Assembly: GCA_002269645.1 (NCBI GenBank)
Contig: NIVC01003431.1
Location: forward strand, 1 to 64,000
DNA from: Macrostomum lignano
Taxonomy: Eukaryota
Direction: 5' to 3'
DNA: 64,000 nucleotides
Shown: piece after piece, positions 1 to 41,933 of the stretch
Layout of the letters: every line of letters begins with the position of its first letter
Position numbering within the stretch: the stretch's first letter is position 1
Notes under the pieces: model-generated
Database searches by the model: none
Told to the model about the DNA's origin: nothing
What the model saw: the letters and a program-made list of their open reading frames with translations, nothing else
Position numbers and translations under genes: made by a program

Positions 1-66
1 GAGGAGGAGAAGATAAAAAGTGTTAAGGGGAGAAAGAGAGACAGAGACAGTGAAAAAATTACTTAC

Positions 67-3000
67 GAATCGTATCGGCGTAAATGACGCGGGTTCCTAG
101 ACCCTCCAGAGCCTCGTAGAGTCGCAGCCGGGCGTGGGAGGTGGTGAAAACGCCAATAGGTACATTAGCGTACTTGAACGCCCGCTCGCCAGCACCGCCA
201 AATCGGGGCTTGTACTCGAGCATCATGAAGCTCTCCCCAATTGGCTCGCACGACTTGACCTTGATCGAGGGGTCGTCAGGCGCTGCAGCCACGCCTCGTA
301 GCTGTCCACAATCTCTGTGGAGGTCAGGTCGTCGCGCTGGCAGAATTTGCCCCAGAGCCTGCAGGGAAAAATAAATTTTTTTTGTAAGTAGAAAAACAGG
401 CCCCACTGCAAGTAGAAAAAACTTACGAGTTTAGAAAAATCTTGGCACAAAGCGCAGGCCAGGATTTCTCCACCTTTTCCAGCCGGACGCCTTCGCGCTC
501 GAAAAAGCTGGCCATGTAGGCAGCCTTGGCGTCCTCAGCCATCCCCGGCGAACCGCTAGACTCGGCTTTGAGCTTCAAAAAAGTGTTTACATAATCTGCA
601 AACAGGCCCGTGCGAGTCTCGGTCCAATAGGCCAGGGCATGAACTGACTGCAGCTTGTAACCCAACTGCAGGGCCTTGTGGAGCTCTGGGGTCGACCACG
701 TGCCGCGGAGCATTCTCTCAGCGTCAGTGTGTGTACACTCGCTGCTGCACTGGGTCTCCATGCAGACGCGGCAGAGGCCGAAAACCAGCTTCTTGTTAAT
801 CTTGGCGGGCAGTAGCGGGATGTGGAGATTGGTTGGCGGCAGAATCGACACCTCGGCGATGCCAAAATACCGGGCCAGCTGCAGCTCATCCAGTAGATGA
901 GGCTCGGGGTGGTGTACCGGGTGCCCGACAGGGTACTTGTCAAACTTGTTGACAGTCGGGTAGAGCGACACCTAGGGGATAAGGGATAAGATAAACTCAA
1001 ACGCATGTCAACTGTGTGTGTACAAGTGTACAAACTTACCACATCCCGATAGCGCAGCTCTACAGTCTCGGTGGCCTCGGCGTGCGGGACAAAAGCCTCG
1101 GTACGGCCGCCAAACAGGGCATCCTCCAGGCGAATAGGCTGCTGGACTGGCGCTCCCTCGTCCTGATAGTCGTGCTCCCACAGAACACGCACATTGTATG
1201 CAGTGGAGAGCAGCCGGTGAAGCGCTCAGTCTCCTCATAAATCGCCCGCATTGGCTGGTTCTTGAGCGGGTGCAGCACGTCGCCGTTGGGGAAGCACTTG
1301 GGACAGCCATGGAAGAAGCAGCCATGAAACTGCAGCACTGTCCTGGTCTCTGGGTCGAAGCCGTCGACCTTACGGCCCATGGCGAAAGCCTCGCCGCCCG
1401 AGTCCGCTGTCCGCAACCGGCCGCCAAACTCGGTTGCATTCAAATGTGCAGCCAGCACCGCGCCTTGTGCGACTGTACATCGGACCGGCGGGAAATCACC
1501 CCAAGAGTGTTGGGCTCCATAAACTTGGTGGTGAATAACAGCCATGGCCAAGCCCGCAATGGTGTTGGATTGAACAAATGCGTCCAGTCCGCAAATGTCC
1601 TTAATCAGGCGGGTATTTAGACAGCCTTCCCGCAAAATTAACGTGTCCTGCAGGCAGTAGTCCAGGTACTCCTTATTGAAATTAAACACCTGTCCCTCCT
1701 GCTTGGCCAGCCAGTCGGCGATGGAGTCATGCTGCTTGTTTTTCCTCCATACATATCAATTGAGCAGTAGGGACCCACGTACCCCCAATTTTGGCTGGTT
1801 AAACACGTGCGGGAAATCTCCTTTGGTCAGTTGGGTGCCCAAACCAAGCGCCTTTGGGAATTGCGCCAGACCAATAGGGATGAAATTGAGGCTGTCCTTG
1901 AAGGTGATCTTGTCGCACTTCATACATTAGGCGGCTGTTCTGGAAGATCACTTGCGGCTTCTTCTTGGCCAGTCCGTTGAGTAGGGCGCCGAGCAGGAGG
2001 AATGCGTCATACGCAGAGCCATTGTGCGCAATAGCAATTGCCCCCTGCTTGAACACACTAGTCAGCCAGCAGTAAAAGGCATCGATAGAGTGCGGCCCGA
2101 CAGATACAAACTCTCGCATCCCACAGGCACAGTCATTGTGCGAGACACAGCTCGTGAAATCGAGTGCCAAATCGCGTCCCGCAATGCAATTGGCTGAGCT
2201 GTGTAGTCCCCCGCACGCTGCAGCGGGGCCTGGGGAAGAGTTTGGGACACGCCTCGCAGGAGGTGGCAGCCGTAACCAAGTGTACCCGGTGCTGCTTGCC
2301 AGAGTCCACGTACGTCTCGAAATCATAGTAAACATACGGGGCGCTAGACTCTTTGGCTTTGGGCGGGGTGACAAAGCACTCGTGGGTGGCAGTTTCGTCG
2401 TACTGCTTGCAGACTGGGCACTTGGCGTAACCACACTGATGCTCAGGGGGCTGGCCTACTTTTAGTTCTTCTAGATAGCCACACGTGCCGCAAACGTGGA
2501 CCGAATCACAGCGCGATCTGCCGGCCTTATTCTTGCGCTTGTGATTTTCTAGGCACTGAGCATTATAGCAATTTAGCCCGCAATCATGGCATCTTACATA
2601 TGCGCGGTTTGCCTTACAGTTGGAGCCCGGAGTCTTGCATGTACTGCAGGCATCAGCGCACTTGTGCTTCTCATATTGCAGTCGTAGGCCATCTCGCACT
2701 TGGGGCAGTAGTGATCGAGCCGAAAAACGCAGGCAGCTTGGTACCACATTAAAGTGCTGCTCGACCAGGTGTAGGTGCAGAATCTCGGTGCCAGGCAGGT
2801 TGAAGATGCACCTGTTGGCCTCCTCTGCGCGGTACACGCGTACACCAAAATCGTGCCCGGATGCAGCCGGTTCAGGGCACGGATCGCTTCGGGCAGTGCA
2901 TCCACCCGAAAGGACCGCCTGCGAGACGGTTTGAAGAGTCTGTGTGGGGGTAAAATATTTCTTTTAGTATTCCTGATACTGTGTAAAATCTTATCAGAAA

Positions 3001-4674
3001 ATTTCTTTTAGTATTCCATGATACTGTGTAAAAATCTTATCAGAAAATATATCTTTTAGTATTCCATGATACTGTGTAAAAATTCTTATCAGAAAATATA
3101 TCTTTTAGTATTCGATACTGTGTAAAAATTCTTATCAGAAAATTTTAGTATTCCAGATACTGTGTAAAAATTCTTATCGAAAAATACTAGAAACTTACCG
3201 TAGAGGCCAGCTTCGATTTGTAGCTCAGCCAAGCTTAGTCTGCGTGGGCGAATTGGCCTTGATTGTGCCACACCTGCTGGTGATGGACTTGGCCACGAAT
3301 TGCAGGTAGGCGCAGGCCACGACCAGAGCGCGCAGCAGGCATCTCTTGTCCGAGTTGGTGATGCGGACATAGTGCTTGGAGAAGGCGTGCCGCTCTTCTA
3401 GATGCTTGTTCTCGAGAGCACATCCACCTCGAGGCACCCAGGCCTTTAGCAACCGATAGAAAAGTTGCCGACAACAGTGGCATCCGACTGCACAATCTTG
3501 TCATGTGCTTAAACAACAATTCAGCCGTCATGCGGGCTGCACGCACCGGGGGAGTGTGGGCCGCTTTGAGCATATTGTCGCTCTCGAATTTCGCGGCCAT
3601 AAAGTCATCACCAGCCAAATCTTGCTTGAAAACTTCGAGCATGTCAGCAAACACCTCCCGCAAATCTTCGGTGTTGGTAATATGCACCACATACTCGACA
3701 CCCTTTGCCCTAAACTTGGGCAGGTCACGCTGATTATCCAGCCGGGCCGTAAAACCTGCATGGGGGGAATGGGGGAGTGTGAGTCAGCTAGGGTCTGTGT
3801 GGGAAATGGGGGGCTGGATAACTCACCCGGTCCGGTAACAGATTCCGGCTGTGTTGGCGGGACAAACGCGTCTGAAAAAACACAAGGAGATAAAAAACCA
3901 GAAGAATCTGTCATTTTCCTGGCCCCAGCGTGTTTCCCCGCCCTAGCCCCAGCAATTTCTTAACAGAGTTTACTCTGCTGTCCCCGCAGCAACTCTCTGC
4001 AATTTCTTATCTGCACCCCCGCTGCAGCCTGTCGCAGCAGTCTTTGTTTACTCACCCCTGCAACTCTCTGTCGCAGCAATTTGCACCTAGCTGCAGCCTG
4101 TCTGGGTAGCGCCCTATCTGCAGCCCCAGTCTGTCCCAGCAACTCTCTGCCCCCACCTGGCTGGAACTTGTCTAGCCTGCCCCAACGATTCTGCAGCAAT
4201 TTCTTATCTGCCGCAGCACCCTAGCAACTGTCTGTTTTTGCAGCAATTTCTTATCAGCACACCCCTCCCTGTCTAGACAACACCCCACCCCAGTCTTTGT
4301 TTACTCACCCCTGCAACTCTCTGTCGCAGCAATTTGCACCCCAGCTGCAGCCTGTCTGGACAACACCCCCCTAGCAGCAATTTCTTATCAGCACACACCC
4401 GGCTGAAACTTGTCTAGCCCTCCCCTGCAACTCTCTGTTACAGACCCTGCCGCAGCACCCCACCCTAGCAACTCCAGTCTAGACCCCTGCAGCTGTCGCA
4501 GCAGTCTTTGTTGTTTACTCTGCGGTCCCACAGACCCTGCAGCTGCTGCTGCTGCTCAGCCCCTACCCCCACCCTAGCAACTACAGTCTAGACAGAAATT
4601 AATTAAAACTTACCATAAAGACGTTGCCTCTTGTCAGCCAGGAAAGCAGTTGCTGCGGCGCTGCGTTTAGCCAT
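67..4674 (-). CDS. polB: Protein-primed family B DNA polymerase, copy 1 (exons 4674-4614, 3871-3827, 3755-3199, 2939-1040, 971-427, 358-67; last exon outside window; several 1-2 nt indels)
   Basis: ORF fragments carry YDFET, AHNGSAYD, YCLQD, D(V)VSLYP, KIFLNS/LWGKF and YADTD. GT-AG introns mirror those of copy 2. Confidence 0.9.
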
Positions 4675-4912
4675 TTTGCAAACAGAGAGCGTGAGAGAGC
4701 GGAGAGAGAAGGATTTATCTCTCTACCCTGGCTCTGGGGGTCTGTATATATACTAAAAAATCTGCTCAGCTCGCCTGTTATTGGATAAATCGCCAAAAAC
4801 CAACCAAAATCATCAAAAATCACCCCAAAATCATCACCCACCCCACCCTCCATCCGGGGTATATAAGGCGCTGCACGGCTGTCAGAGAGCTCTCTGCTGC
4901 TGCTGCTAAATC
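4675..4912. promoter_or_regulatory. Bidirectional promoter between polB and PC4-like gene (copy 1)
   Basis: GTATATAAGG at ~4860 lies about 50 nt before the PC4 ATG (4913). An opposite-strand TATATATA and a CCAAT precede the polB ATG (4674). Confidence 0.6.
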
Positions 4913-5445
4913 ATGTCTTCTATCTCTCTATACGAAAACTTTGTGGCGCGGAAGCCCACATTTGAAACTGAACACAACTTGATTGAAATTCGGCGTCTCT
5001 ACACCAACGAGGCCGGAGTGTGGAAGGACGGCTTCCCTGCAATCTACTTGGCCGAGCCAGAGTGGAAGAAGCTCGAAGCTGCGCGCCCTGACCTGGAGGC
5101 TGCTGCCCGCCTTCACGTGAACAAGCGGGTCCTGTTGGGCAATTTCAAGGCAGTTGAAGCTTCGCGAGGGAGGATCCGTTTGCTGCGCAATTGGCTCAAT
5201 CAGGACCCAAAGTTTAATTGGCGCTACACGATCGAATTCACGCCTGAACTGTGGCGCCGGATGTTTGCCGCCCGTTTGGACAAGCTCTTCAAGCCGGCAC
5301 CTGAGGCACCCCTCCAGCCAAGCGAGTCAAGACAGACACGCCTCCGGTAGCCGGGACTGAGGTGGATGTTCTTCAGCTCATGGGTCTCAAACCCTACCAA
5401 TCTCCACCCTGGGAAAATCTGTTTAACGAGGGTTGGGACTGCTAG
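4913..5445 (+). CDS. Tandem PC4-like ssDNA-binding protein, copy 1 (1-nt indel near 5310; about 177 aa)
   Basis: LIEIRRLYTNEAGVWKDGFPAIYLAEPEWKKL matches the PC4/Sub1 signature (human [32 protein letters not shown]). A second repeat reads IRLLRNWLNQD...IEFTPELWRRM. An NLS-like PAKRVK appears after correcting the C-run using copy 2. Confidence 0.75.
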
Positions 5446-5560
5446 TTTCCTATTGGTTCGCACCGCCTCACTCGATCCGTCTATATAATTAGTGTTTCCC
5501 CCTCTCCAGAGAGTCAAACCCTATCTCAGCTCTAATACTTTACTCTCTGTTGATTCTAGC

Positions 5561-5707
5561 ATGTCCCGCCGAGCTCTATCCAACCTCTGGGATAATAATC
5601 GCCCGACTGAAGAGTTAACCAGCCTCGACGGGGATATCCCTGAACACATAGTTCCCCTAGGCACTGAAAACAACGGAATGATAATTGGGAGGCTGATCAA
5701 TATCTAG
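5561..5707 (+). CDS. Small orphan ORF (48 aa, MSRRALSNLW...)
   Basis: ATG at 5561 downstream of CTATATAA (~5483). No recognisable domain. Confidence 0.3.
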   Translation: MSRRALSNLWDNNRPTEELTSLDGDIPEHIVPLGTENNGMIIGRLINI

Positions 5708-5715
5708 CTTGGGCT

Positions 5716-6570
5716 ATGTCCTATGATAGCGACACCGAGTCTGAAGTTTTTGACCTCCCGCTGCTGGCTATCGGCGGGTTGTGAACGGTGCCCCTGCTGC
5801 TACTGCCTCCGATTTGACTACCGCCTCAGCCGCCCTCTTTGACGTCTCTGTTGAGGAGCTGACCACAACCGGCCCTGCCTCTGCTGCGCCCGTCTCTGCT
5901 GCTGCCGCCTCTACTACGCCCGTCTCTGCTGCTGCTTCAACTACCTCCCACCGGGCCTCAATATCATCAGCCGCTACGCTCCTTCTCTTCGACGACGAGG
6001 ACGAGGATATGTCTGAGGAGATCGCCGTGGTTCGTGAGCGCTTTCCTCGCATTGTGGCCTCATTTTTCCGTGGGGACATTGACTGGCTGAGGTCTCGGCA
6101 TCCTGGCGGGCTGCCCTCCCAAGCCACCTTTGTCAGAGCCTTTAATCGGGTTCTTGATACTTTGGTTGCGAGGGGTGCCGGCCTACGGGAGGTGGGAGGC
6201 TGAGACTCTGCACCAGGACTGGTTGATGGGGCGCAATTCGTATGCCCCCGACTCTGAGGCGTACCTGGCCGGTCCGGGAGCGCGGCCAACCGCGTGGGAT
6301 GAGCCCGCCGCATGGCCCTCCAACTGGGAGGAGCACCTTTCGTTGGTGCGCTATACAGCGTCTCTACGTCTGTGGCGGCTGGAGGACGATTTAGATTTGG
6401 TAAGATATTACATTATATACACAACTCATCTAATCATATACCTTGCATATATTCTATCTACATTGACTGTTATAATTTCCACATTGCAGTCATCCGACTA
6501 CTGCTTCGAGAGCGTGGAGGAAGAGGCCGCGTACGAGACAGCCCTGAGGGAGCGTATGGAGATTGACTGA
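5716..6570 (+). CDS. Orphan element protein (about 250 aa), joined across two probable 1-nt indels (~5775, ~6175) and one intron (6400-6489)
   Basis: ATG 5716 followed by ORFs 5781-6203 and 6130-6570 in consecutive frames. The AT-rich 90-nt insert TTG|gtaaga...ttgcag|TCA is a phase-0 intron. Confidence 0.55.
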
Positions 6571-6701
6571 TAAGGGTTTTCTCTTTGTACGCGTTTGGGG
6601 AACCCAACACTGTACACTGGGTAGGTTAGAATGGCGCTAGCTGGGGGGCCTCTATGTGTGTATACACGGGGGTTAAAAGACCAATTCTGATAGCTCGCTC
6701 C

Positions 6702-6778
6702 TAGGGAGGAAATTGGCAGAGGGGCCGGCCCAAAAAACTGAAATGGGCTGGCCCCGGGCTCGAGTCCACCCACCTAAA
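6702..6778 (+). ncRNA. Putative Pol III-type structured small RNA 1
   Basis: GGGAGG-N4-TGGCAGAG (A-box-like), a 12-bp stem with 11-nt loop, then GGCTCGAGTCC (B-box-like). Same layout as 14361-14450. Confidence 0.5.
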
Positions 6779-6880
6779 ATATGGAGGTCATTACAACCTA
6801 ATGACCGAAATACTTTCAACGCAATTGTACCCATAAGAGGGTTAGGGCGGCGGCGGCGGTGGCGAAAACGGGCGGCTAAA

Positions 6881-7809
6881 ACCTCCCTTTTGGGATTTCC
6901 CCGAACCGCTTTTGTTAAAATTTTTATGCACCTGCGGGTTAGACAATATTTACTCTTTAGTCGGTGCGACATTATTTACGCGTCTGTTGCACCTGGGCGT
7001 TTGCCTATAATCTGATTATACATGCGTGCCTGTATTATACAACTACACCTTATGCATGCCTTGTAAACCTGCTTTATACATTAATCCGATATGTATCGAA
7101 AGTACACTTTGTAAACCTGCTGTGTGTATTTCCCCCTATGTAGCGCCTACAGTACCTGCTTTGTCTATTTCTGCCCATGCACCTACATTGTGTGTTTTTG
7201 CTGCTCATATGCTCCAATATGTACATTTTAATATGCAATATGCGTCATTATTCACCTACCAATATGTTTTATCTACATTTTTATGTAAATATACTCAATT
7301 TCACCTACTATAAGTAGTTTTCACTAGCCTAATATCGTTGACTACATATCGGGAGAGTGTGGTAGAGTGTACACACATATCGGTAGAGTGTACCTTGGGC
7401 TCGGTAGAGTGTACACTCGGGGTGCTTGCGGCTCGGTAGAGTGTACACTCGGGGTGCCTGCGGCATGGGCGTCTGCGGCATGGGCGCCTGCGGCTGGGGA
7501 AGGTCGCCTGCGGCTCGGGAGGGTGTACATATCGGGGTACATGTCGGTAGGGTGAGCATACATATCGGTAGGTGCGCCTGCGGCTGGGGAGGGTCGCCTG
7601 CGGCTGGGGAGGGTCGCCTGCGGCTGGGGAGGGTCGCCTGCGGCTGGACGGCGCTTGGCGCCACGCGCCTGCGGCGCGCGCGCGCGCCGAGCGCCGATAT
7701 CGATACGGGTATCGATCACCTAGTGATCGGGGCGCCAGCCAATGAGAGGCGAGGAGGGTTGACACCCACCCCCCTCCCAAAATCAACACATCTGCCAGTC
7801 CATAGTAGT
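6881..7809 (+). repeat. Terminal repeat (inferred TIR), copy at the PC4-side end
   Basis: Highly similar to 14514-15393. AT-rich inner part, GC-rich 16-20-bp subrepeats, palindromic cluster, ends CATCTGCC-N6-TAGTAGT. Confidence 0.75.
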
Positions 7810-7898
7810 GACAGATTATATGTAATTTATATACGATTTATATGAAATTAAGCTTACCAAAAATCGGGTTCGCGCTGTACGGATACGGCACGCCTCAA

Positions 7899-8395
7899 TT
7901 AGCAACCCTCGTCAAACAGATTTCCCCAAGGGTAGGGTTTGATGCTGTCAAGGCAGTCCTGCAGATTGTCCTCTGTCTTGACTCGCTTGGCTGGAGGGGG
8001 TGCCTCAGGTGCCGGCTTGAAGAGCTTGTCCAAACGGGCGGCAAACATCCGGCGCCACAGTTCAGGCGTGAATTCGATCGTGTAGCGCCAATTAAACTTT
8101 GGGTCCTGATTGAGCCAATTGCGCAGCAAACGGATCCTCCTCGCGAAGCTTCAACTGCCTTGAAATTGCCCAACAGGACCCGCTTGTTCACGTGAAGGCG
8201 GGCAGCAGCCTCCAGGTCAGGGCGCGCAGCTTCGAGCTTCTTCCACTCTGGCTCGGCCAAGTAGATTGCAGGGAAGCCGTCCTTCCACACTCCGGCCTCG
8301 TTGGTGTAGAGACGCCGAATTTCAATCAAGTTGTGTTCAGTTTCAAATGTGGGCTTCCGCGCCACAAAGTTTTCGTATAGAGAGATAGAAGACAT
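7899..8395 (-). CDS. Tandem PC4-like ssDNA-binding protein, copy 2 (1-nt indel near 8140; about 165 aa, variant C-terminus)
   Basis: Near-identical to 4913-5336 in reverse complement. Ends APPAKRVKTEDNLQDCLDSIKPYPWGNLFDEGC*. Confidence 0.75.
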
Positions 8396-8633
8396 GATTT
8401 AGCAGCAGCAGCAGAGAGCTCTCTGACAGCCGTGCAGCGCCTTATATACCCCCGGATGGAGGGTGGGGTGGGTGATGATTTTGGGGTGATTTTTGATGAT
8501 TTTGGTTGGTTTTTGGCGATTGACCAATAACAGGCGAGCTGAGCAGATTTTTTAGTATATATACAGACCCCCAGAGCCAGGGTAGAGAGATAAATCCTTC
8601 TCTCTCCGCTCTCTCACGCTCTCTGTTTGCAAA
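8396..8633. promoter_or_regulatory. Bidirectional promoter (copy 2)
   Basis: CCTTATATACCC at ~8440 (TATA on minus strand), CCAAT at ~8524, TATATATA at 8556-8563, polB ATG at 8634. Confidence 0.6.
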
Positions 8634-11600
8634 ATGGCTAAACGCAGCGCCGCAGCAACTGCTTTCCTGGCTGACAAGAGGCAACGTCTTTATGGTAAGT
8701 TTTAATTAATTTCTGTCTAGACTGTAGTTGCTAGGGTGGGGGTAGGGGCTGAGCAGCAGCAGCAGCTGCAGGGTCTGTGGGACCGCAGAGTAAACAACAA
8801 AGACTGCTGCGACAGCTGCAGGGGTCTAGACTGGAGTTGCTAGGGTGGGGTGCTGCGGCAGGGTCTGTAACAGAGAGTTGCAGGGGAGGGCTAGACAAGT
8901 TACAGCCGGGTGTGTGCTGATAAGAAATTGCTGCTAGGGGGTGTTGTCCAGACAGGCTGCAGCTGGGGTGCAAATTGCTGCGACAGAGAGTTGCAGGGGT
9001 GAGTAAACAAAGACTGGGTGGGGGGTTGTCTAGACAGGGAGGGGTGTGCTGATAAGAAATTGCTGCAAAAACAGACAGTTGCTAGGGTGCTGCGGCAGAT
9101 AAGAAATTGCTGCAGAATCGTTGGGGCAGGCTAGACAAGTTACAGCCAGGTGGGGGCAGAGAGTTGCTGGGACTGTGTAGCGCGGGGACAGACTGATAAG
9201 AAATTGGCAGGGGCGCTACCCAGACAGGCTGCAGCTAGGTGCAAATTGCTGCGACAGAGAGTTGCAGGGGTGAGTAAACAAAGACTGGGGTGGGGGGTTG
9301 TCTAGACAGGGAGGGGTGTGCTGATAAGAAATTGCTGCAAAAACAGACAGTTGCTAGGGTGCTGCGGCAGATAAGAAATTGCTGCAGAATCGTTGGGGCA
9401 GGCTAGACAAGTTTCAGCCGGGTGGGGGCAGAGAGTTGCTGGGACAGACTGGGGCTGCAGATAGGGCGCTACCCAGACAGGCTGCAGCTAGGTGCAAATT
9501 GCTGCGACAGAGAGTTGCAGGGGTGAGTAAACAAAGACTGCTGCGACAGGCTGCAGCGGGGGTGCAGATAAGAAATTGCAGAGAGTTGCTGCGGGGACAG
9601 CAGAGTAAACTCTGTTAAGAAATTGCTGGGGCTAGGGCGGGGAAACACGCTGGGGCCAGGAAAATGACAGATTCTTCTGGTTTTTTATCTCCTTGTGTTT
9701 TTTCAGACGCGTTTGTCCCGCCAACACAGCCGGAATCTGTTACCGGACCGGGTGAGTTATCCAGCCCCCCATTTCCCACACAGACCCTAGCTGACTCACA
9801 CTCCCCCATTCCCCCATGCAGGTTTTACGGCCCGGCTGGATAATCAGCGTGACCTGCCCAAGTTTAGGGCAAAGGGTGTCGAGTATGTGGTGCATATTAC
9901 CAACACCGAAGATTTGCGGGAGGTGTTTGCTGACATGCTCGAAGTTTTCAAGCAAGATTTGGCTGGTGATGACTTTATGGCCGCGAAATTCGAGAGCGAC
10001 AATATGCTCAAAGCGGCCCACACTCCCCCGGTGCGTGCATCCCGCATGACGGCTGAATTGTTGTTTAAGCACATCAACAAGATTGTACAGTCGGATGCCA
10101 CTGTCCTGACGGGCAACTTTTCTATCCGGTTGCTAAAGGCCTGGGTGCCTCGAGGTGGATGTGCTCTCGAGAACAAGCATCTAGAAGAGCGGCACGCCTT
10201 CTCCAAGCACTATGTCCGCATCACCAACTCGGACAAGAGATGCCTGCTGCGCGCTCTGGTCGTGGCCTGCGCCTACCTGCAATTCGTGGCCAAGTCCATC
10301 ACCAAGCAGGTGTGGCACACAATCAAGGCCAATTCGCCCACGCAGACTAAGCTGGTGGCTGAGCTACAAATCGAAGCTGGCCTCTACACGGTAAGTTTCT
10401 AGTATTTTTCCGATAAGAATTTTTACACAGTATCGTGGAATACTAAAAGATATATTTTCTGATAAGAATTTTTACACAGTATCGGGGAATACTAAAATTT
10501 TCTGATAAGATTTTTTACACAGTATCAGGGAATACTAAAAGAAATATTTTACCCTCCACACAGACTCTTCAAACCGTCTCGCAGGCTGGTCCTTTCGGGT
10601 TGGATGCACTGCCCGAAGCGATCCGTGCCCTGAACCGGCTGCATCCGGGGCGCGATTTTGGTGTACGAGTGTACAGGGCAGAGGAGGCCAACAGGTGCAT
10701 CTTCAACCTGCCTGGCACCGAGATTCTGCACCTGCACCTGGTCGAGCAGCACTTTAATGTGGTCACCAAGCTGCCTGCGTTTTTCGGCTCTGATCACTAC
10801 TGCGCCAAGTGCGAGATGGCCTACGACTGCGCCAACGCCGAGCACAAGTGCGCTGACGCCTGCAGTACATGCAAGACTCCGGGCTCCAACTGTAAGGCAA
10901 ACCGCGCATATGTAAGATGCCAGGATTGCGGGCTAAATTGCTATAATGCTCAGTGCCTAGAAAATCACAAGCGCAAGAATAAGGCGGGCAGATCGCGCTG
11001 TGATTCGGTCCACGTTTGCGGCACGTGTGGCTATCTAGAAGAACTAAAAGTAGGCCAGCCCCCTGAGCATCAGTGTGGTTATGCCAAGTGCCCAGTCTGC
11101 AAGCAGTACGACGAAACTGCCACCCACGAGTGCTTTGTCACCCCGCCCAAAGCCAAAGAGTCTAGCGCCCCGTATGTTTACTATGATTTCGAGACGTACG
11201 TGGACTCTGGCAAGCAGCACCGGGTACACTTGGTTACGGCTGCCACCTCCTGCGAGGCGTGTCCCAAACTCTTCCCAGGCCCCGCTGCAGCGTGTGCGGG
11301 GGACTACACAGCTCAGCCAATTGCATTGCGGGACGCGATTTGGCACTCGATTTCACGAGCTGTGCCTCGCACAATGACTGTGCCTGTGGGATGCGAGAGT
11401 TTGTATCTGTCGGGCCGCACTCTATCGATGCATTTTACTGCTGGCTGACTAGTGTGTTCAAGCAGGGGGCAATTGCTATTGCGCACAATGGCTCTGCGTA
11501 TGACGCATTCCTCCTGCTCGGCGCCCTACTCAACGGACTGGCCAAGAAGAAGCCGCAAGTGATCTTCCAGAACAGCCGCCTAATGTACATGAAGTGCGAC

Positions 11601-13925
11601 AAGATCACCTTCAAGGACAGCCTCAATTTCATCCCTATTGGTCTGGCGCAATTCCCAAAGGCGCTTGGTTTGGGCACCCAACTGACCAAAGGAGATTTCC
11701 CGCACGTGTTTAACCAGCCTCAAAATTGGGGTACGTCGGTCCCTACTGCTCAATTGATATGTACGGAGGAAAGAAAAACAAGCAGCATGACTCCATCGCT
11801 GACTGGCTGGCCAAGCAGGAGGGACAGGTGTTTAATTTCAATAAGGAGTACCTGGACTACTGCCTGCAGGACACGTTAATTTTGCGGGAAGGCTGTCTGA
11901 AATATACCCGCCTGATTAAGGACATTTGCGGACTGGACGCATTTGTCCAATCCAACACCATTGCGGGCTTGGCTATGGCTGTTTTCACCACCAAGTTTAT
12001 GGAGCCCAACACTCTTGGGGTGATTTCCCGCCGGTCCGATGTACAGTCGCACAAGGCGCGGTGCTGGCTGGCACATTTAAATGCAACCGAGTTTGGCGGC
12101 CGGTTGCGGACAGCGGACTCGGGCGGCGAGGCTTTCGCCATGGGCCGTAAGGTCGACGGCTTCGACCCAGAGACCAGGACAGTGCTGCAGTTTCATGGCT
12201 GCTTCTTCCATGGCTGTCCCAAGTGCTTCCCCAACGGCGACGTGCTGCACCCGCTCAAGAACCAGCCAATGCGGGCGATTTATGAGGAGACTGAGCGCTT
12301 CACCCGGTTGCTCTCCACTGCATACAATGTGCGTGTTCTGTGGAGCACGATTATCAGGACGAGGGAGCGCCAGTCCAGCAGCCTATTCGCCTGGAGGATG
12401 CCCTGTTTGGCGGCCGTACCGAGGCTTTTGTCCCGCATGCCGAGGCCACCGAGACTGTAGAGCTGCGCTATCGGGATGTGGTAAGTTTGTACACTTGTAC
12501 ACACAGTTGACATGCGTTTGAGTTTATCTTATCCTTATCCCCTAGGTGTCGCTCTACCCGACTGTCAACAAGTTTGACAAGTACCCTGTCGGGCACCCGG
12601 TTCACCACCCCGAGCCTCATCTACTGGATGAGCTGCAGCTGGCCCGGTATTTTGGCATCGCCGAGGTGTCGATTCTGCCGCCAACCAATCTCCACATCCC
12701 GCTACTGCCCTCCAAGATTAACAAGAAGCTGGTTTTCGGCCTCTGCCGCGTCTGCATGGAGACCCAGTGCAGCAGCGAGTGTACACACACTGACGCTGAG
12801 AGAATGCTCCGCGGCACGTGGTCGACCCCAGAGCTCCACAAAGCCCTGCAGTTGGGTTACAAGCTGCAGTCAGTTCATGCCCTGGCCTATTGGACCGAGA
12901 CTCGCACGGGCCTGTTTGCAGATTATGTAAACACCTTTTTGAAGCTCAAAGCCGAGTCTAGCGGTTCGCCGGGGATGGCTGAGGACGCCAAGGCTGCCTA
13001 CATGGCCAGCTTTTTCGAGCGCGAAGGCGTCCGGCTGGAAAAGGTGGAGGAGAATCCTGGCCTGCGCTTTGTTGCCAAGATTTTTCTAAACTCGTAAGTT
13101 TTTCTACTTGCAGTGGGGGGCCATGTTTTTCTACTTACATAAAATTTATTTTTCCTCTGCAGGCTCTGGGGCAAGTTCTGCCAGCGCGACGACCTGACCT
13201 CCACAGAGATTGTGGACAGCTACGAGGCGTGGCTGCAGCGCCTGACAGACCCCTCGATCAAGGTCAAGTCGTGCGAGCCAATTGGGGAGAGCTTCATGAT
13301 GCTCGAGTACAAGCCCCGATTTGGCGGTGCTGGCGAGCGGGCGTTCAAGTACGCCAATGTACCTATTGGCGTTTTCACCACCTCCCACGCCCGGCTGCGA
13401 CTCTACGAGGCTCTGGAGGGTCTAGGAACCCGCGTCATTTACGCCGATACCGATTCGTAAGTAATTTTTTCAACTGTCTCTGTCTCTCTTTCTCCCCTTA
13501 ACACTTTTTATCCTTCTCCTCCTCCTCCCAGGGTCGTATACCGCTGCTCCCCGGGCGAGTACGAGCCTCCGGGCGGTTCGAGTTTGGGGCAGTGGACTGA
13601 CGAGGTACCTGCTGGCTGCCGCATGGTACAGTTCACCACGGGAGGCCCCAAGCTCTACCGGTACGTGGTGGAGAAGCCCGACAGGTCGCTGTACTCGGTG
13701 CTCAAGTGCAAGGGCATCAGAGTCACGCCCGAGATTTCCGAGCGCGAGGACGAGCTGCAGGAAATTCTGCGCCACGGGGGCTCTGTCCGCCTGCCCCAGG
13801 CCCAGTTCAGGCGCGATAAGGCCAGCTGTACAATCCGGACCCTGGAGATGGACAAGACTTTCCAGCGCGTAATGACTAAGAGGGTGTATGGGGCCGCTAG
13901 CCGCCCGTATGGCTTTCGTGAGTGA
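8634..13925 (+). CDS. polB: Protein-primed family B DNA polymerase, copy 2: exons 8634-8694, 9707-9751, 9822-10390, 10564-12480, 12546-13093, 13163-13456, 13532-13925 (about 1,270 aa; three 1-nt indels in exon 4)
   Basis: All six introns are GTAAGT/GTGAGT...YAG and splice in frame. Exo I-III: YDFET, HNGSAYD, YCLQD. Pol A/B/C: RDV|VSLYP, KIFLNS|LWGKF, YADTDS|V. Also a Cys-rich zinc region, a Vsr-like VDGFD...QFHGCFFHGC segment, and N-terminal OTU-like DKRCLLRAL...QHF. Confidence 0.93.
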
Positions 13926-14087
13926 GTGAAAGATAAGGATCTGTCTTTACACGCCTGGGATTCCCCTATGTGCCCACTTGGGATCCCTTGACTCTTGGGG
14001 TTGAAAAATGGTTTTACGCCCGCACTGTACTTAGGGGTCCTTACTCATTTGACACCTCCTGTACATTGAGCGGGATTCCTTCAAGTG

Positions 14088-14333
14088 TTAAAACTCCCAT
14101 TTGACACCTATTCCCTCGGGGCGGTTTGTGGCCCAGCGGTCCGCCTCTTGGAGTAGAACTCCTGACATGAACTTGCTGCGCTGATTAGCGTACTGATAGC
14201 GCAATCGAAATACGTCCATTTTTCTAGCCCACTTGTGGGTACATTTACGTTGAAAGATGTTGATGCGTTCAATAACGTTGTAATAATAATAAGTCTCCAC
14301 ATCATAGGGCGGCGAAACCTCCCTTTTGCTCAT
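14088..14333 (-). CDS. Small orphan ORF (81 aa) convergent with polB
   Basis: ATG-initiated, non-repetitive ORF inside the element. No recognisable domain. Confidence 0.35.
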   Translation of the reverse strand: MSKREVSPPYDVETYYYYNVIERINIFQRKCTHKWARKMDVFRLRYQYANQRSKFMSGVLLQEADRWATNRPEGIGVKWEF

Positions 14334-14360
14334 CTATTTTAGACAATAATGAGACTCTGA

Positions 14361-14450
14361 CCCCGGGAGGTTAATGGCCGAGCGGGTAACCCTGGCGGTA
14401 TAAAACAGGGTGACCCAGGCTCGATTCCTGGCTGGGGGCTGTAGACTTTT
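14361..14450 (+). ncRNA. Putative Pol III-type structured small RNA 2 (tRNA-like boxes, not a tRNA)
   Basis: TGGCCGAGCGG A box; 11-bp stem with 11-nt loop; T-arm CCAGG-CTCGATT-CCTGG containing the B box; closing CCCCGG/CTGGGG; TTTT at ~14447. Confidence 0.55.
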
Positions 14451-14513
14451 CCGGCCCCTGCGTCCCTATTGGGTTTAATTGTGTTGAAAGTATATCGGGT
14501 CATTAGGCCGTGA

Positions 14514-15393
14514 ACCCCCCTTTTGGGATTTCCCCGAACCGCTTTTGTTTAATATTTATGCACCTGCGGGTTAGACAATATTTACTCTTTAGTCGGTGCG
14601 ACATTATTTACGCGTCTGTTGCACCTGGGCGTTTGCCTATAATCTGATTATACATGCGTGCCTGTATTATACAACTACACCTTATGCATGCCTTGTAAAC
14701 CTGCTTTATACATTAATCCGATATGTATCGAAAGTACACTTTGTAAACCTGCTGTGTGTATTTCCACCTATGTAGCGTCTACAGTACCTGCTTTGTCTAT
14801 TTCTGCCCATACACCTACATTGTGTGTTTTTGCTGCTCATATGCTCCAATATGTACATTTTAATATGCAATATGCGTCATTATTCACCTACCAATATGTT
14901 TTATCTACATTTTTATGTAAATATACTCAATTTCACCTACTATAAGTAGTTTTCACTAGCCTAATATCGTTGACTACATATCGGGAGAGTGGTAGAGTGT
15001 ACATATCGGTAGAGTGTACACTCGGGGTGCCTGCGGCTCGGTAGAGTGTACACTCGGGGTGCCTGCGGCATGGGCGTCTGCGGCATGGGCGCCTACGGCT
15101 CGGGAGGGTGCGCCTGCGGCTCGGGAGGGTGTACATATCGGGGTACATATCGGTAGGGTGGGCATACATATCGGTAGGTGCGCCTGCGGCTGGGGAGGGT
15201 CGCCGGTGGCTGGGGAGGGTCGCCTGCGGCTGGACGGCGCTTGGCGCCACGCGCCTGCGGCGCGCGCGCGCCGAGCGCCGATATCGATACGGGTATCGAT
15301 CACCTAGTGATCGGGGCGCCAGCCAATGAGAGGCGAGGAGGGTTGACACCCACCTCACCTCCAAAATCAAGCCATCTGCCGTTGCTTAGTAGT
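14514..15393 (+). repeat. Terminal repeat (inferred TIR), copy at the polB-side end
   Basis: Repeat of 6881-7809 with subrepeat copy-number differences. Confidence 0.75.
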
Positions 15394-15840
15394 CCGCAGG
15401 GACTTATTTTAGCGCCACAGGCACTCAGTTTCGCGTTGCAGGGACTCATTTTAGCGCCACAGGCACTCATTTTAGCGCCACAGGCACTCATTTTAGCGCC
15501 GCAGGCACTCATTTTAGCGCCGCAGGCACTCATTTTAGCGCCGCAAGCACTCATTTTAGCGCTGCAAGCACTCATTTTAGCGCCGCAAGCACTCATTTTA
15601 GCGCCGCAAGCACTCATTTTGGCGCCGCAGGCACTCATTTTAGCGCCGCAGGCACCTATTTGAGCACCGCACGCACCATTTTAGCGCCGCAGGCACTCGT
15701 TTGAGCGTCGCAGGCACTCGTTTGAGCGCCGCAGGCACTCGTTTGAGCGCCGCAGGCACTCGTTTGAGCGTCGCAGGCACTCGTTTGAGCGCCGCAGGCA
15801 CTCATTTGAGCACCGCAGGCACTCGTTTGAGCGCCGCAGG
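15394..15840. repeat. 21-bp satellite (GCAGGCACTCATTTTAGCGCC)n
   Basis: Visible tandem array. Confidence 0.95.
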
Positions 15841-16119
15841 CTTGACGCTTGATGCGTATTTTGTTGTTGTTAAAGACTGAAGGTTCGTTCACAACTCACA
15901 CCTGACACCTCTATCAAATCTGACCAGATTTCGTATAGCTAATCTCGAGACTTGTACATCAACTTTCATTCCTTTGTACAAATACATCATTATTTGATGG
16001 CAAGGATGGCGGGAGTGTCAATGAGCCTAATTTACTTCCCTTAAGTCGAAAAGAGACCTTTATTCTAGTCACTATAGAAAGAGTCATAGACAGTTAGCGC
16101 AACCAGAAATTTGTTGAGG

Positions 16120-19829: not shown

Positions 19830-22340
19830 AATTTTGGCACTCATTTTGGCGCTGCAGGCACTCCTTATAGCGCCTCAGGCACACATTTTACCGCCGCAGG
19901 CACTCATTTTAGCGCCTCAGGCACTCATTTTAGCGCTGCAGGCACTCCTTATAGCGCTGCAGGCACTCATTTTGGCGCTGCAGGCACTCTTTATAGCGCC
20001 TCAGGCACTCATTTTAGCGCTGCAGGCACTCCTTATAGCGCTGCAGGCACTCATTTTAGCGCTGCAGGCACTCCTTATAGCGCTGCAGGCACTCATTTTA
20101 GCGCTGCAGGCATACATTTTAGCGCAGCAGGCACTCATTTTAGCGCCTCAGGCACTCATTTTAGCGCCGCAGGCACTCATTTTAGCGCCGCAGACACTCC
20201 TTATAGCGCCACAGGCACTCATTTTAGCGCCACAGGCACTCATTTTGGCGCCGCAGGCACTCCTTATAGCGCCGCAGACACTCCTTATAGCGCCTCAGGC
20301 ACTCATTTTAGCGCCGCGGGCACTCATTTTAGTGCCGCAGACACTCATTTGAGCGCCGCAGGCACTCATTTTGGCGCCGCAGGCACTTATTGAGCACCGC
20401 AGGCACTCATTTTAGCGCCGCAGGCACTCATTTTAGCGCCGCAGGCACTCGTTTAAGCGCCGCAAGCACTCGTTTGAGCGCCGCAGGCACTCGTTTGAGC
20501 GCCGCAGGCACCTATTTGAGCACCGCACGCACCATTTTAGCGCCGCAGGCACTCGTTTGAGCGCCGCAGGCACTCGTTTGAGCGCCGCAGGCACTCGTTT
20601 GAGCGCCGCAGGCACTCGTTTGAGCGCCGCAGGCACTCATTTTAGCGCCGCAGGCACTCATTTTACCGCCACAGGCACTCGTTTTGGCGCCGCAGGCACT
20701 TATTGAGCACCGCAGGCACTCATTTTAGCGCCGCAGGCACTCATTTTAGCGCCGCAGGCACTCATTTTAGCGCCGCAGGCACTCATTTTAGCGCCGCAGA
20801 CATTCATTTTAGCGCCGCAGGCACCTATTTGAGCACCGCACGCACCATTTTAGCGCCGCAGGCACTCATTTTAGCGCCGCAGGCACTCATTTTAGCGCCG
20901 CAGACATTCATTTTAGCGCCGCAGGCACCTATTTGAGCACCGCACGCACCATTTTAGCGCCGCAGGCACTCATTTTAGCGCCGCAGGCACCTATTTGAGC
21001 ACCGCACGCACCATTTTAGCGCCGCGGGCACTCATTTTAGTGCCGCAGACACTCATTTGAGCGCCGCAGGCACTCATTTTGGCGCCGCAGGCACTTATTG
21101 AGCACCGCAGGCACTCATTTTAGCGCCGCAGGCACTCATTTTAGCGCCGCAGGCACTCGTTTAAGCGCCGCAAGCACTCGTTTGAGCGCCGCAGGCACTC
21201 GTTTGAGCGCCGCAGGCACCTATTTGAGCACCGCACGCACCATTTTAGCGCCGCAGGCACTCGTTTGAGCGCCGCAGGCACTCGTTTGAGCGCCGCAGGC
21301 ACTCGTTTGAGCGCCGCAGGCACTCGTTTGAGCGCCGCAGGCACTCATTTTAGCGCCGCAGGCACTCATTTTACCGCCACAGGCACTCATTTTAGCGCCG
21401 CAGGCACTCATTTTAGCGCCGCAGGCACTTATTGAGCACCGCAGGCACTCATTTTAGCGCCGCAGGCACTCATTTTAGCGCCGCAGGCACTCGTTTAAGC
21501 GCCGCAAGCACTCGTTTGAGCGCCGCAGGCACTCGTTTGAGCGCCGCAGGCACCTATTTGAGCACCGCACGCACCATTTTAGCGCCGCAGGCACTCGTTT
21601 GAGCGCCGCAGGCACTCGTTTGAGCGCCGCAGGCACTCGTTTGAGCGCCGCAGGCACTCGTTTGAGCGCCGCAGGCACTCATTTTAGCGCCGCAGGCACT
21701 CATTTTACCGCCACAGGCACTCATTTTAGCGCCGCAGGCACTCATTTTAGCGCCGCAGGCACTCATTTTAGCGCCGCAGGCACTCATTTTAGCGCCGCAG
21801 ACATTCATTTTAGCGCCGCAGGCACCTATTTGAGCACCGCACGCACCATTTTAGCGCCGCAGGCACTCATTTTAGCGCCGCAGGCACTCATTTTAGCGCC
21901 GCAGACATTCATTTTAGCGCCGCAGGCACCTATTTGAGCACCGCACGCACCATTTTAGCGCCGCAGGCACTCATTTTAGCGCCGCAGGCACCTATTTGAG
22001 CACCGCACGCACCATTTTAGCGCCGCAGGCACTCGTTTGAGCGCCGCAGGCACTCATTTTAGCGCCGCAGGCACTCATTTTAGCGCCGCAGGCACCTATT
22101 TGAGCACCGCACGCACCATTTTAGCGCCGCAGGCACTCATTTTAGCGCCGCAGGCACCTATTTGAGCACCGCACGCACCATTTTAGCGCCGCAGGCACTC
22201 GTTTGAGCGCCGCAGGCACTCGTTTGAGCGCCGCAGGCACTCGTTTGAGCGCCGCAGGCACTCGTTTGAGCGCCGCAGGCACTCGTTTGAGCGCCGCAGA
22301 CACTCATTTGAGCACCGCAGGCACTCGTTTGAGCGCCGCA
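19830..22340. repeat. 21-bp satellite, long array with internal higher-order repeats
   Basis: Same monomer as 15394-15840. Confidence 0.95.
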
Positions 22341-22619
22341 GGCTTGACGCTTGATGCGTATTTTGTTGTTGTTAAAGACTGAAGGTTCGTTCACAACTCA
22401 CACCTGACACCTCTATCAAATCTGACCAGATTTCGTATAGCTAATCTCGAGACTTGTACATCAACTTTCATTCCTTTGTACAAATACATCATTATTTGAT
22501 GGCAAGGATGGCGGGAGTGTCAATGAGCCTAATTTACTTCCCTTAAGTCGAAAAGAGACCTTTATTCTAGTCACTATAGAAAGAGTCATAGACAGTTAGC
22601 GCAACCAGAAATTTGTTGG

Positions 22620-30978: not shown

Positions 30979-41933
<10,955 letters not shown>

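Follow-up and report, generated by a model that had tools for sequence, protein, structure and literature searches.

A replication-only Polinton derivative with a six-intron, spliced polymerase gene, probably a satellite, in Macrostomum lignano

The stretch of DNA analysed here (the window) comprises 64,000 nt of the Macrostomum lignano genome (contig NIVC01003431.1, assembly GCA_002269645.1), and its feature of interest is a gene for a protein-primed DNA polymerase of family B (pPolB), which runs on the forward strand from an ATG at 8634 to a stop codon at the end of its last exon at 13925. The polymerase is of the Beta type and is encoded in seven exons (PF03175, E 1.4e-43 on protein P0135), and its closest proteins in UniRef, up to 96–100% identical, are labelled Macrostomum lignano. 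The gene sits in a young element with terminal inverted repeats (TIRs) that is transcribed, spliced and spreading, and is not a domesticated gene. The best overall explanation of our observations is that this element is probably a replication-only derivative of Polintons that behaves as a satellite.

All exons and introns of the gene lie on the + strand. Exon 1 (8634..8694, with its joint in sequencing run X1 at 8693/9706) is followed by intron 1 (8695..9706; 1012 nt, phase 1), which is internally repeated, the 45-nt exon 2 (9707..9751), intron 2 (9752..9821; 70 nt, phase 1), exon 3 (9822..10390), which is an open frame, and intron 3 (10391..10563; 173 nt, phase 0), which is built of a 43–49 bp tandem repeat. 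A second in-frame acceptor is present at 10585, 21 nt past the intron-3 acceptor, and the run contigs back the first one only. Exon 4 (10564..12480) encodes a Cys-rich region, the exonuclease and the start of motif A (Pfam DNA_pol_B_2), and the remaining introns interrupt the three catalytic motifs: intron 4 (12481..12545; 65 nt, phase 0) lies within motif A, intron 5 (13094..13162; 69 nt, phase 2) within motif B and intron 6 (13457..13531; 75 nt, phase 2) in the last codon of motif C, between exon 5 (12546..13093; DNA_pol_B_2, E 6e-13), exon 6 (13163..13456) and exon 7 (13532..13925). The six junctions have GTAAGT or GTGAGT donors and YAG acceptors, with coordinates matching the earlier annotation; GT..AG ends with a consensus donor and a pyrimidine tract, as in U2-type introns, are present at 6/6 introns, and a branch-like motif within 60 nt of the acceptor at 3/6. 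Retention would lead to an in-frame stop within 10 codons for five of the six introns and to a frameshift for intron 2. In the window copy the frame of exon 4 is broken at three places (near 11.3, 11.7 and 12.3 kb), and the shifts cancel out over the exon; since the contigs of all four runs examined (X1, X2, X3 and X19) differ in length from the window at these breaks, the breaks are probably assembly errors or lesions private to this copy.

Splicing was assessed by comparing positions 7900-14100 with the contigs of 4 of the 20 sequencing runs containing the stretch. The probable RNA run X1 showed exact GT..AG skips of all six introns, X3 skipped introns 2, 4, 5 and 6 exactly and had a variant joint at intron 3, and X2 skipped introns 3-6 (4/6), its contigs leaving the intron 2 region without cover; intron 4 is skipped in all three. 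The DNA-like run X19 had 0/6 joints although all 30 bins were covered, introns included. One X3 contig reads unspliced into intron 1 while skipping introns 2-6. An exact-pattern search, which addressed intron 5 alone and exact matches only, found 42 genomic copies with the intron and none without, so the joined form is unlikely to be DNA. In addition, the deposited 967-aa “hypothetical protein” ALD16274.1 reads straight through the joints of introns 4-6, and some of the pPolB introns are likewise removed in automatic gene models. We conclude that all six pPolB introns are real and removed from RNA. An earlier note, made from the sequence of the window, had proposed these six introns, placed introns 4-6 in or next to motifs A, B and C, and suggested a search for joined sequence across the junctions; the joints were found, completely in X1, partially in X2 and X3 and not at all in X19, and the coordinates agree with the placement in the motifs. 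Its statement that phases match throughout holds as the net result, exon 4 of the window copy having the three frame changes described above, while its argument that unspliced RNA cannot give an active enzyme is true of almost any intron. The element around the gene, with its lack of integrase and capsid genes, the inverted copy at 1-7809 and the exon 4 frame breaks escaped that note.

The gene belongs to copy A of the element, which occupies 7810-15393 of the window and continues on contig C2368. Its right TIR (14747..15393, +) ends in TAGTAGT and is followed by a 6-bp target duplication (15394..15399, +), the partner of which is at the left end of the element on C2368. A second, inverted element (copy B; 1..7809, −), about 96–98% identical, is inserted in the left arm of copy A; its left TIR (6880..7809, −) begins with ACTACTA, its own 6-bp target duplication lies at 7810..7815 (+), with the uninterrupted site seen in loci L032 and L049, and its pPolB gene, starting at 4674 (−), shares all six donors with that of copy A and is truncated within intron 6, where the contig begins. 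Genome-wide, the best 40 of 110 candidates listed in a first copy search included 38 of full length at 92–100% identity, and the terminus pattern gave 238 exact genomic matches compared with 0 for the control. Among 27 two-ended elements, picked as paired ends among the first 100 of these 238 termini, all 27 start with ACTACTA, end with TAGTAGT and are flanked by an exact 6-bp target duplication; the duplications are random in sequence. Six whole copies of this family (family 1) measure 8.8–9.7 kb, with TIRs of about 650–900 bp. Family 2 (P0003 type), whose polymerase is ~60–70% identical to that of family 1 at the amino acid level, has ends in 5′-ACTACG (28 terminus matches), TIRs of about 400 bp, a length of 9.5–13.8 kb and a 6-bp target duplication in 4/4 copies (read by eye).

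Besides pPolB, the element carries a PC4-like gene of the single-strand DNA-binding type, which in copy A (7895..8395, −) is divergent from pPolB and has a frame broken in the assembled copy, and in copy B lies at 4913..5350 (+). The family-1 protein matched PC4 in Atlas (0.86, a lead only) and, for a sister copy, in Pfam (E 0.021), with a clearer Pfam match for the family-2 orthologue (E 1e-5); these proteins are 29–34% identical to the PC4 of the full Polintons in this genome. The short divergent intergenic stretch at 8398-8634 contains two TATA-like runs (read by eye) and is probably a two-way promoter serving the PC4-like gene and pPolB; a bacterial promoter scan, which is unsuited to this host, gave no match. 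A further open reading frame, ORF2 (copy B, 5561..6570, +; predicted intron 6400-6489), occurs in 4/6 whole family-1 copies and had no Pfam match below E 0.04 and no usable Atlas match. Copy B landed in a predicted intron of the copy A PC4-like gene (window 7810-7857, − strand; L032:5810-5885), and the PC4-like gene of A-type copies appears to finish with an exon similar to the end of ORF2. A dUTPase gene is present in one of four whole family-2 copies (L071:5307-5837; Pfam E 3e-28). None of the ten whole pPolB elements (six of family 1 and four of family 2) had a tblastn match to the integrase (queried with two integrases of the same genome), major capsid, protease or ATPase of this genome, and no rve domain was seen among the window ORFs scanned. 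The element's polymerase is under purifying selection: exons 5-7 of the 29 best-scoring close copies, compared with the window copy in pairs that are not independent, had a ratio of non-synonymous to synonymous polymorphism (pN/pS) of 0.05 (73 synonymous and 16 non-synonymous distinct variants), 0 stops, and no frameshift in 19/29.

Comparison of the two families allowed the introns to be dated relative to their split. Introns 3-6 of family 2 are at the same codon and phase as those of family 1, with other lengths, and one family-2 copy, read by eye, has a homologous exon 2 bounded by phase-1 introns, matching the intron 1 acceptor and the intron 2 site of family 1. This sharing indicates that all six sites are older than the split of the two families. 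Exons 5-7 are 68–73% identical between families (shuffled 55–56%), whereas introns 4-6 have drifted to 52–57% (shuffled 46–50%), in support of the long nuclear history that the earlier note had suggested. Apparent intron-6 rows in L076 were spurious, caused by a repeat. A conservation profile built from 19 aligned non-Macrostomum homologues put intron 4 in the top 7.2% of columns, intron 5 in the top 0.1% and intron 6 in the top 4.9% (Fisher combined p = 0.001 for introns 3-6; 0.011 with introns 1-2 set to 1). The chance of all three polymerase-domain introns falling in motifs A, B and C is 2e-4 to 6e-4, for windows chosen after the fact. Ordinary spliceosomal introns have been reported to show no preference for conserved sites (PMC2814812). 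Introns may stay in the element since it would live in the nucleus and be copied from DNA to DNA, with no reverse-transcription step that purges introns, and those in motifs A–C would survive longest because only exact loss would be tolerated there.

The motif-B site also appears to be interrupted in other Polinton lineages. Judged from protein sequences only, 13 of 101 non-Macrostomum homologues read L-N-R followed by Phe-rich sequence at this site, except one that ends there; P0030, P0087 and P0107 carry the insert in frame, with the motif continuing after it. At the DNA level, where introns were predicted from sequence, 1 of 83 loci (L197) agrees with intron 5 in motif-B site and phase, its GT..AG intron being 134 nt long, five (L146-148, L179 and L180) have an 87–90-nt intron 5 nt downstream of that site, and 62 are continuous there, the remainder being unscored; the motif-A regular expression found no match in 40/83. 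An intron call in L157 came from a spurious regular-expression anchor. The five loci with the downstream intron are metagenomic Polinton polymerases close to the intronless L123 and seem to have acquired that intron recently; one of them, L148, belongs to a full Polinton, with matches to integrase, ATPase and capsid. A search of viral contigs with P0030 gave no match, and a search with alignment A1 gave three loci with no intron called at the three motif sites. Introns in motif B occur in at least four lineages: Macrostomum, a clade near Porites-named proteins and L197 share one site, and the L146-148/L179/L180 group has its intron 5 nt downstream. In the trees these carriers are separated by intronless relatives, and the approximately unbiased (AU) test rejected a single clade of carriers (p-AU 5e-41 with Macrostomum, 2e-75 without); the test used 21 rows and a quick LG+G4 model, left out rows without a motif-A anchor and included gene-model rows of uncertain intron state, such as P0012, and its labels were fixed before the first tree while the decision to test came after seeing it. 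A single origin is rejected by this test unless many losses are assumed, and repeated gain in separate Polinton lineages would be the simpler reading. The split serine codon is TC|N in Macrostomum and AG|Y elsewhere. The earlier note had accepted that its reading would fail if the same introns were already common in described Polinton families; the same motif-B site does recur in those 13 of 101 homologues, but we found it described nowhere.

The termini of the element suggest how it may replicate. An element's own two ends differ by 0–1 mismatches over 61 bp in 25 of the 27 two-ended elements, whereas between elements the mean is 12. The ~20 bp between a fixed motif and the terminal TAGTAGT (window 15340-15393; 238 matches) vary in modular blocks between elements, but the two ends of any one element almost always have the same version. 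Many non-coding palindromes of 7–10 kb, with arms ~99% identical, have the same ACTACTA termini and are likewise flanked by 6-bp duplications. Both matched ends and palindromes are what protein-primed strand displacement with self-annealing, as in adenovirus-type replication, is expected to leave. We infer that the spliced pPolB would copy the element by protein-primed strand displacement from a short terminal repeat while the PC4-like protein coats the displaced strands, and that the ends would anneal to each other during this process, which would account for both the own-end matching and the giant non-coding palindromes. The palindromes L099-L105, L107-L109 and L111 (e.g., G000:C303:572722-582109) measure 8–9.5 kb, clustering near the size of the coding element; a limit on size or packaging may lie behind this. 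In one fold-back derivative, L206 (G000:C1090:37000-46999), the PC4-like gene, ORF2 and part of pPolB are present in mirror image.

Full Polintons reside in the same genome, which has at least 117 integrase and 101 capsid matches, and carry rve, chromo, adenain, TBP and PC4 domains, including a TATA-binding-protein homologue at L073:5023-5586 (Pfam TBP, E 3e-21). Their ends read AGTAGTA at 8/8 loci where the end was located, with 6-bp duplications as well, and their polymerase is of a different type, barely alignable to the Beta-type proteins; it forms continuous frames of 1125–1312 aa in 3/7 loci, with three others broken by small shifts and one internally deleted (the intronless state is judged from continuous frames, open-frame length alone also being long for intron-split genes). 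With no integrase found between ACTAC ends, the best reading is that the element, which would rely on the rve integrase of these co-resident Polintons in trans, likely integrates by that route, a weaker step than those of replication. The link between satellite and helper rests on their co-occurrence and the equal duplication length of 6 bp, their ends differing by G versus C in the 3-base repeat. A 21-kb element at C106 was considered as a same-ended helper and rejected, being an AGTAGT-ended Polinton nested in a palindromic element; this nested Polinton (L072:7388 to L073:9512, G000:C106) has an internally deleted polymerase, and the same deleted form occurs alone at C84.

Several points weigh against the satellite reading and the intron history attached to it. 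We found no integrase-bearing element with ACTAC ends, the helper link is circumstantial, and helper and satellite have no common subterminal sequence. The two-ended elements are the selected sample described above, and the run data are contigs rather than reads, with the RNA type predicted and no listed run recorded as RNA. Neither free linear DNA nor a terminal protein nor a virion was observed. Intron 3, the fourth intron covered by the profile, is not at a conserved site (63.8%, 64th percentile). Given the no-preference result of PMC2814812, retention through a requirement for exact loss is not an established rule.

Two alternatives concern how the element moves and where its introns came from. 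The pPolB element could be one segment of a bipartite system, with an unseen ACTAC-ended partner carrying the integrase and perhaps capsids. By analogy, matching ends link the segments of bidnaviruses, and both intron-bearing families differ consistently from full Polintons in their ends (ACTACTA, ACTACG); there is also room for such a partner, as the listed termini are 100 of 238 and 115 of 2603 candidates were scored for integrase. However, the same-ended elements fetched that do not carry pPolB were non-coding palindromes, truncated forms or the host of the nested Polinton, four further PC4-bearing loci had no integrase, and among the matches listed no integrase lay between listed ACTACTA ends (coordinates read) except in the nested C106 case, so that we consider a two-part system unlikely. 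Somewhat less likely still is that the motif introns descend from spliceosomal introns of a mobile, homing type, which once targeted conserved polymerase motifs in the manner of inteins and group I introns. Such targeting would fit the placement of 3/3 polymerase-domain introns in motifs A, B and C and the occurrence of motif-B introns in at least four lineages with one clade rejected, and spliceosomal introns with homing endonucleases exist in mirusviruses (PMC12768974). Against it, the motif introns are 65–134 nt long and leave no room for an endonuclease gene; no such gene was found in the pPolB introns, introns 2-6 being 65–173 nt long and intron 1 containing no stop-to-stop frame of at least 120 aa. 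Moreover, the interrupted serine codon differs between Macrostomum and the other carriers, and the AG|Y of the latter resembles a ready-made splice site, so ordinary parallel gain accounts for the non-flatworm cases.

The two remaining alternatives were already raised in the earlier note. Intron retention might hold the polymerase back, with full splicing only in germline or stem cells or in the presence of the helper, and both the stop or frameshift that follows any retained intron and the X3 contig that is unspliced into intron 1 yet skips introns 2-6 would suit such a switch. That contig may equally be pre-mRNA or DNA, the donors are near consensus, fully spliced junctions appear in three studies and contigs cannot give splicing levels, and we regard a splicing switch as improbable. 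The idea of a host gene domesticated from a Polinton polymerase can draw on the intron-rich structure, the expression and the purifying selection, but is largely refuted and retains only a very slight chance: rather than a single fixed copy devoid of TIRs and target duplication, we found at least 42 dispersed copies, TIRs and its own perfect 6-bp duplication at each copy examined, and nested insertions, and no orthologue above 43% identity outside Macrostomum lignano among the 120 best matches. A Polinton-derived satellite remains our preferred explanation.

The surroundings of the element are repetitive. Copy A is inserted in a 21-bp satellite array (window 15394-15841 and 19836-22343), and tandem repeats abound in the remainder of the window. 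Positions 40061-41933 contain the 3′ portion of a Frizzled gene, which has a single ordinary intron (about 40722-40974) and is consistent with an animal host.

Taken together, the observations permit a joint reading that we put forward tentatively and with rather less than even confidence, namely that satellite replicons of a new class exist in animals, which would replicate with a spliced, protein-primed polymerase of their own from mirror ends (ACT instead of AGT), hijack the integrase and possibly the capsids of Polintons and support giant palindromic parasites, with motif B as a repeated intron target across animal Polintons, similar to an intein site. If true, such repeated targeting of motif B would imply that introns are directed to this site, or kept there, by a mechanism so far unrecognised. 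According to current descriptions, intact Polintons have no introns and invariably carry an integrase, and the element breaks both rules yet clearly spreads. This raises the question of whether a Polinton integrase or capsid acts in trans on a second replicon, which bears on Polinton satellites and on the virus phase of Polintons, and the question of why spliceosomal introns pick catalytic motifs here when the published test found no such preference. Since the host is a laboratory animal with RNA interference tools, these questions are open to experiment. There is also a practical consequence, in that ORF-based Polinton surveys would truncate or discard polymerases with a motif-B intron, an effect that the 13 of 101 database homologues appear to show. 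The literature searched yielded neither an account of a spliced Polinton polymerase nor one of Polintons from Macrostomum, though subscription papers, Repbase and supplementary repeat libraries may hold one; the accessible text of PMC8502044, 10.1101/2024.03.25.586562, 10.1101/2023.08.22.554363 and PMC4604429 has nothing on a spliced Polinton polymerase, and in that of the coral polintovirus paper PMC11131425 the word “intron” occurs 0 times.

Among known systems, the closest are the Polintons/Mavericks, with which the element shares a pPolB (PF03175) 31–43% identical to animal Maverick polymerases, including turtle and Nematostella proteins, as well as long TIRs, the 6-bp target duplication, a 3-base terminal repeat and a PC4-like gene. 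The element differs from them in its size (9–10 kb versus 13–25 kb), in lacking integrase, capsids, ATPase and protease, in its ends (5′-ACTACT rather than 5′-(AGT)2 or (AG)3) and in its six introns, intact vertebrate Mavericks being reported to have no introns and ends of (AGT)2 and (AG)3 (PMC8097293). It works like a Polinton but fails on the integrase, the virion genes and the end motif. Loss of the virion module with retention of pPolB is also seen in capsid-less Polintons (Trichomonas) and transpoviron-like modules (PMC4405056, 10.64898/2026.10.13.758929); integrase, ATPase and protease are listed as common to all Polintons and capsid-less forms are also described (PMC4405056), and pPolB in the modules is paired with a DDE integrase/transposase (10.64898/2026.10.13.758929), whereas the element has none yet inserts cleanly. 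As a small TIR replicon centred on pPolB with no integrase, it further resembles the polymerase segment of bidnaviruses and the linear pPolB plasmids. Neither of these is known as an integrating element. The bidnavirus PolB is Alpha-related (PMC8502044), and no parvovirus-like genes were seen in our element.

With regard to its introns, the element joins other viral or DNA-transposon genes that are interrupted by spliceosomal introns, namely those of intron-rich mirusviruses (PMC12768974), introner-bearing dinoflagellate Polinton-like elements (10.1101/2025.03.18.643946) and Ginger1 transposases (PMC2836005). The intron-rich mirusviruses, however, have no polymerase and carry introns mainly in virion genes (PMC12768974), and introners are mostly recent insertions, whereas the introns described here are old, conserved in position and located in the polymerase motifs of an animal element that is active. 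In occupying the most conserved columns of the host protein they resemble inteins and group I introns, the latter known also from cryptophyte elements (PMC12220804), but those are self-splicing and endonuclease-driven.

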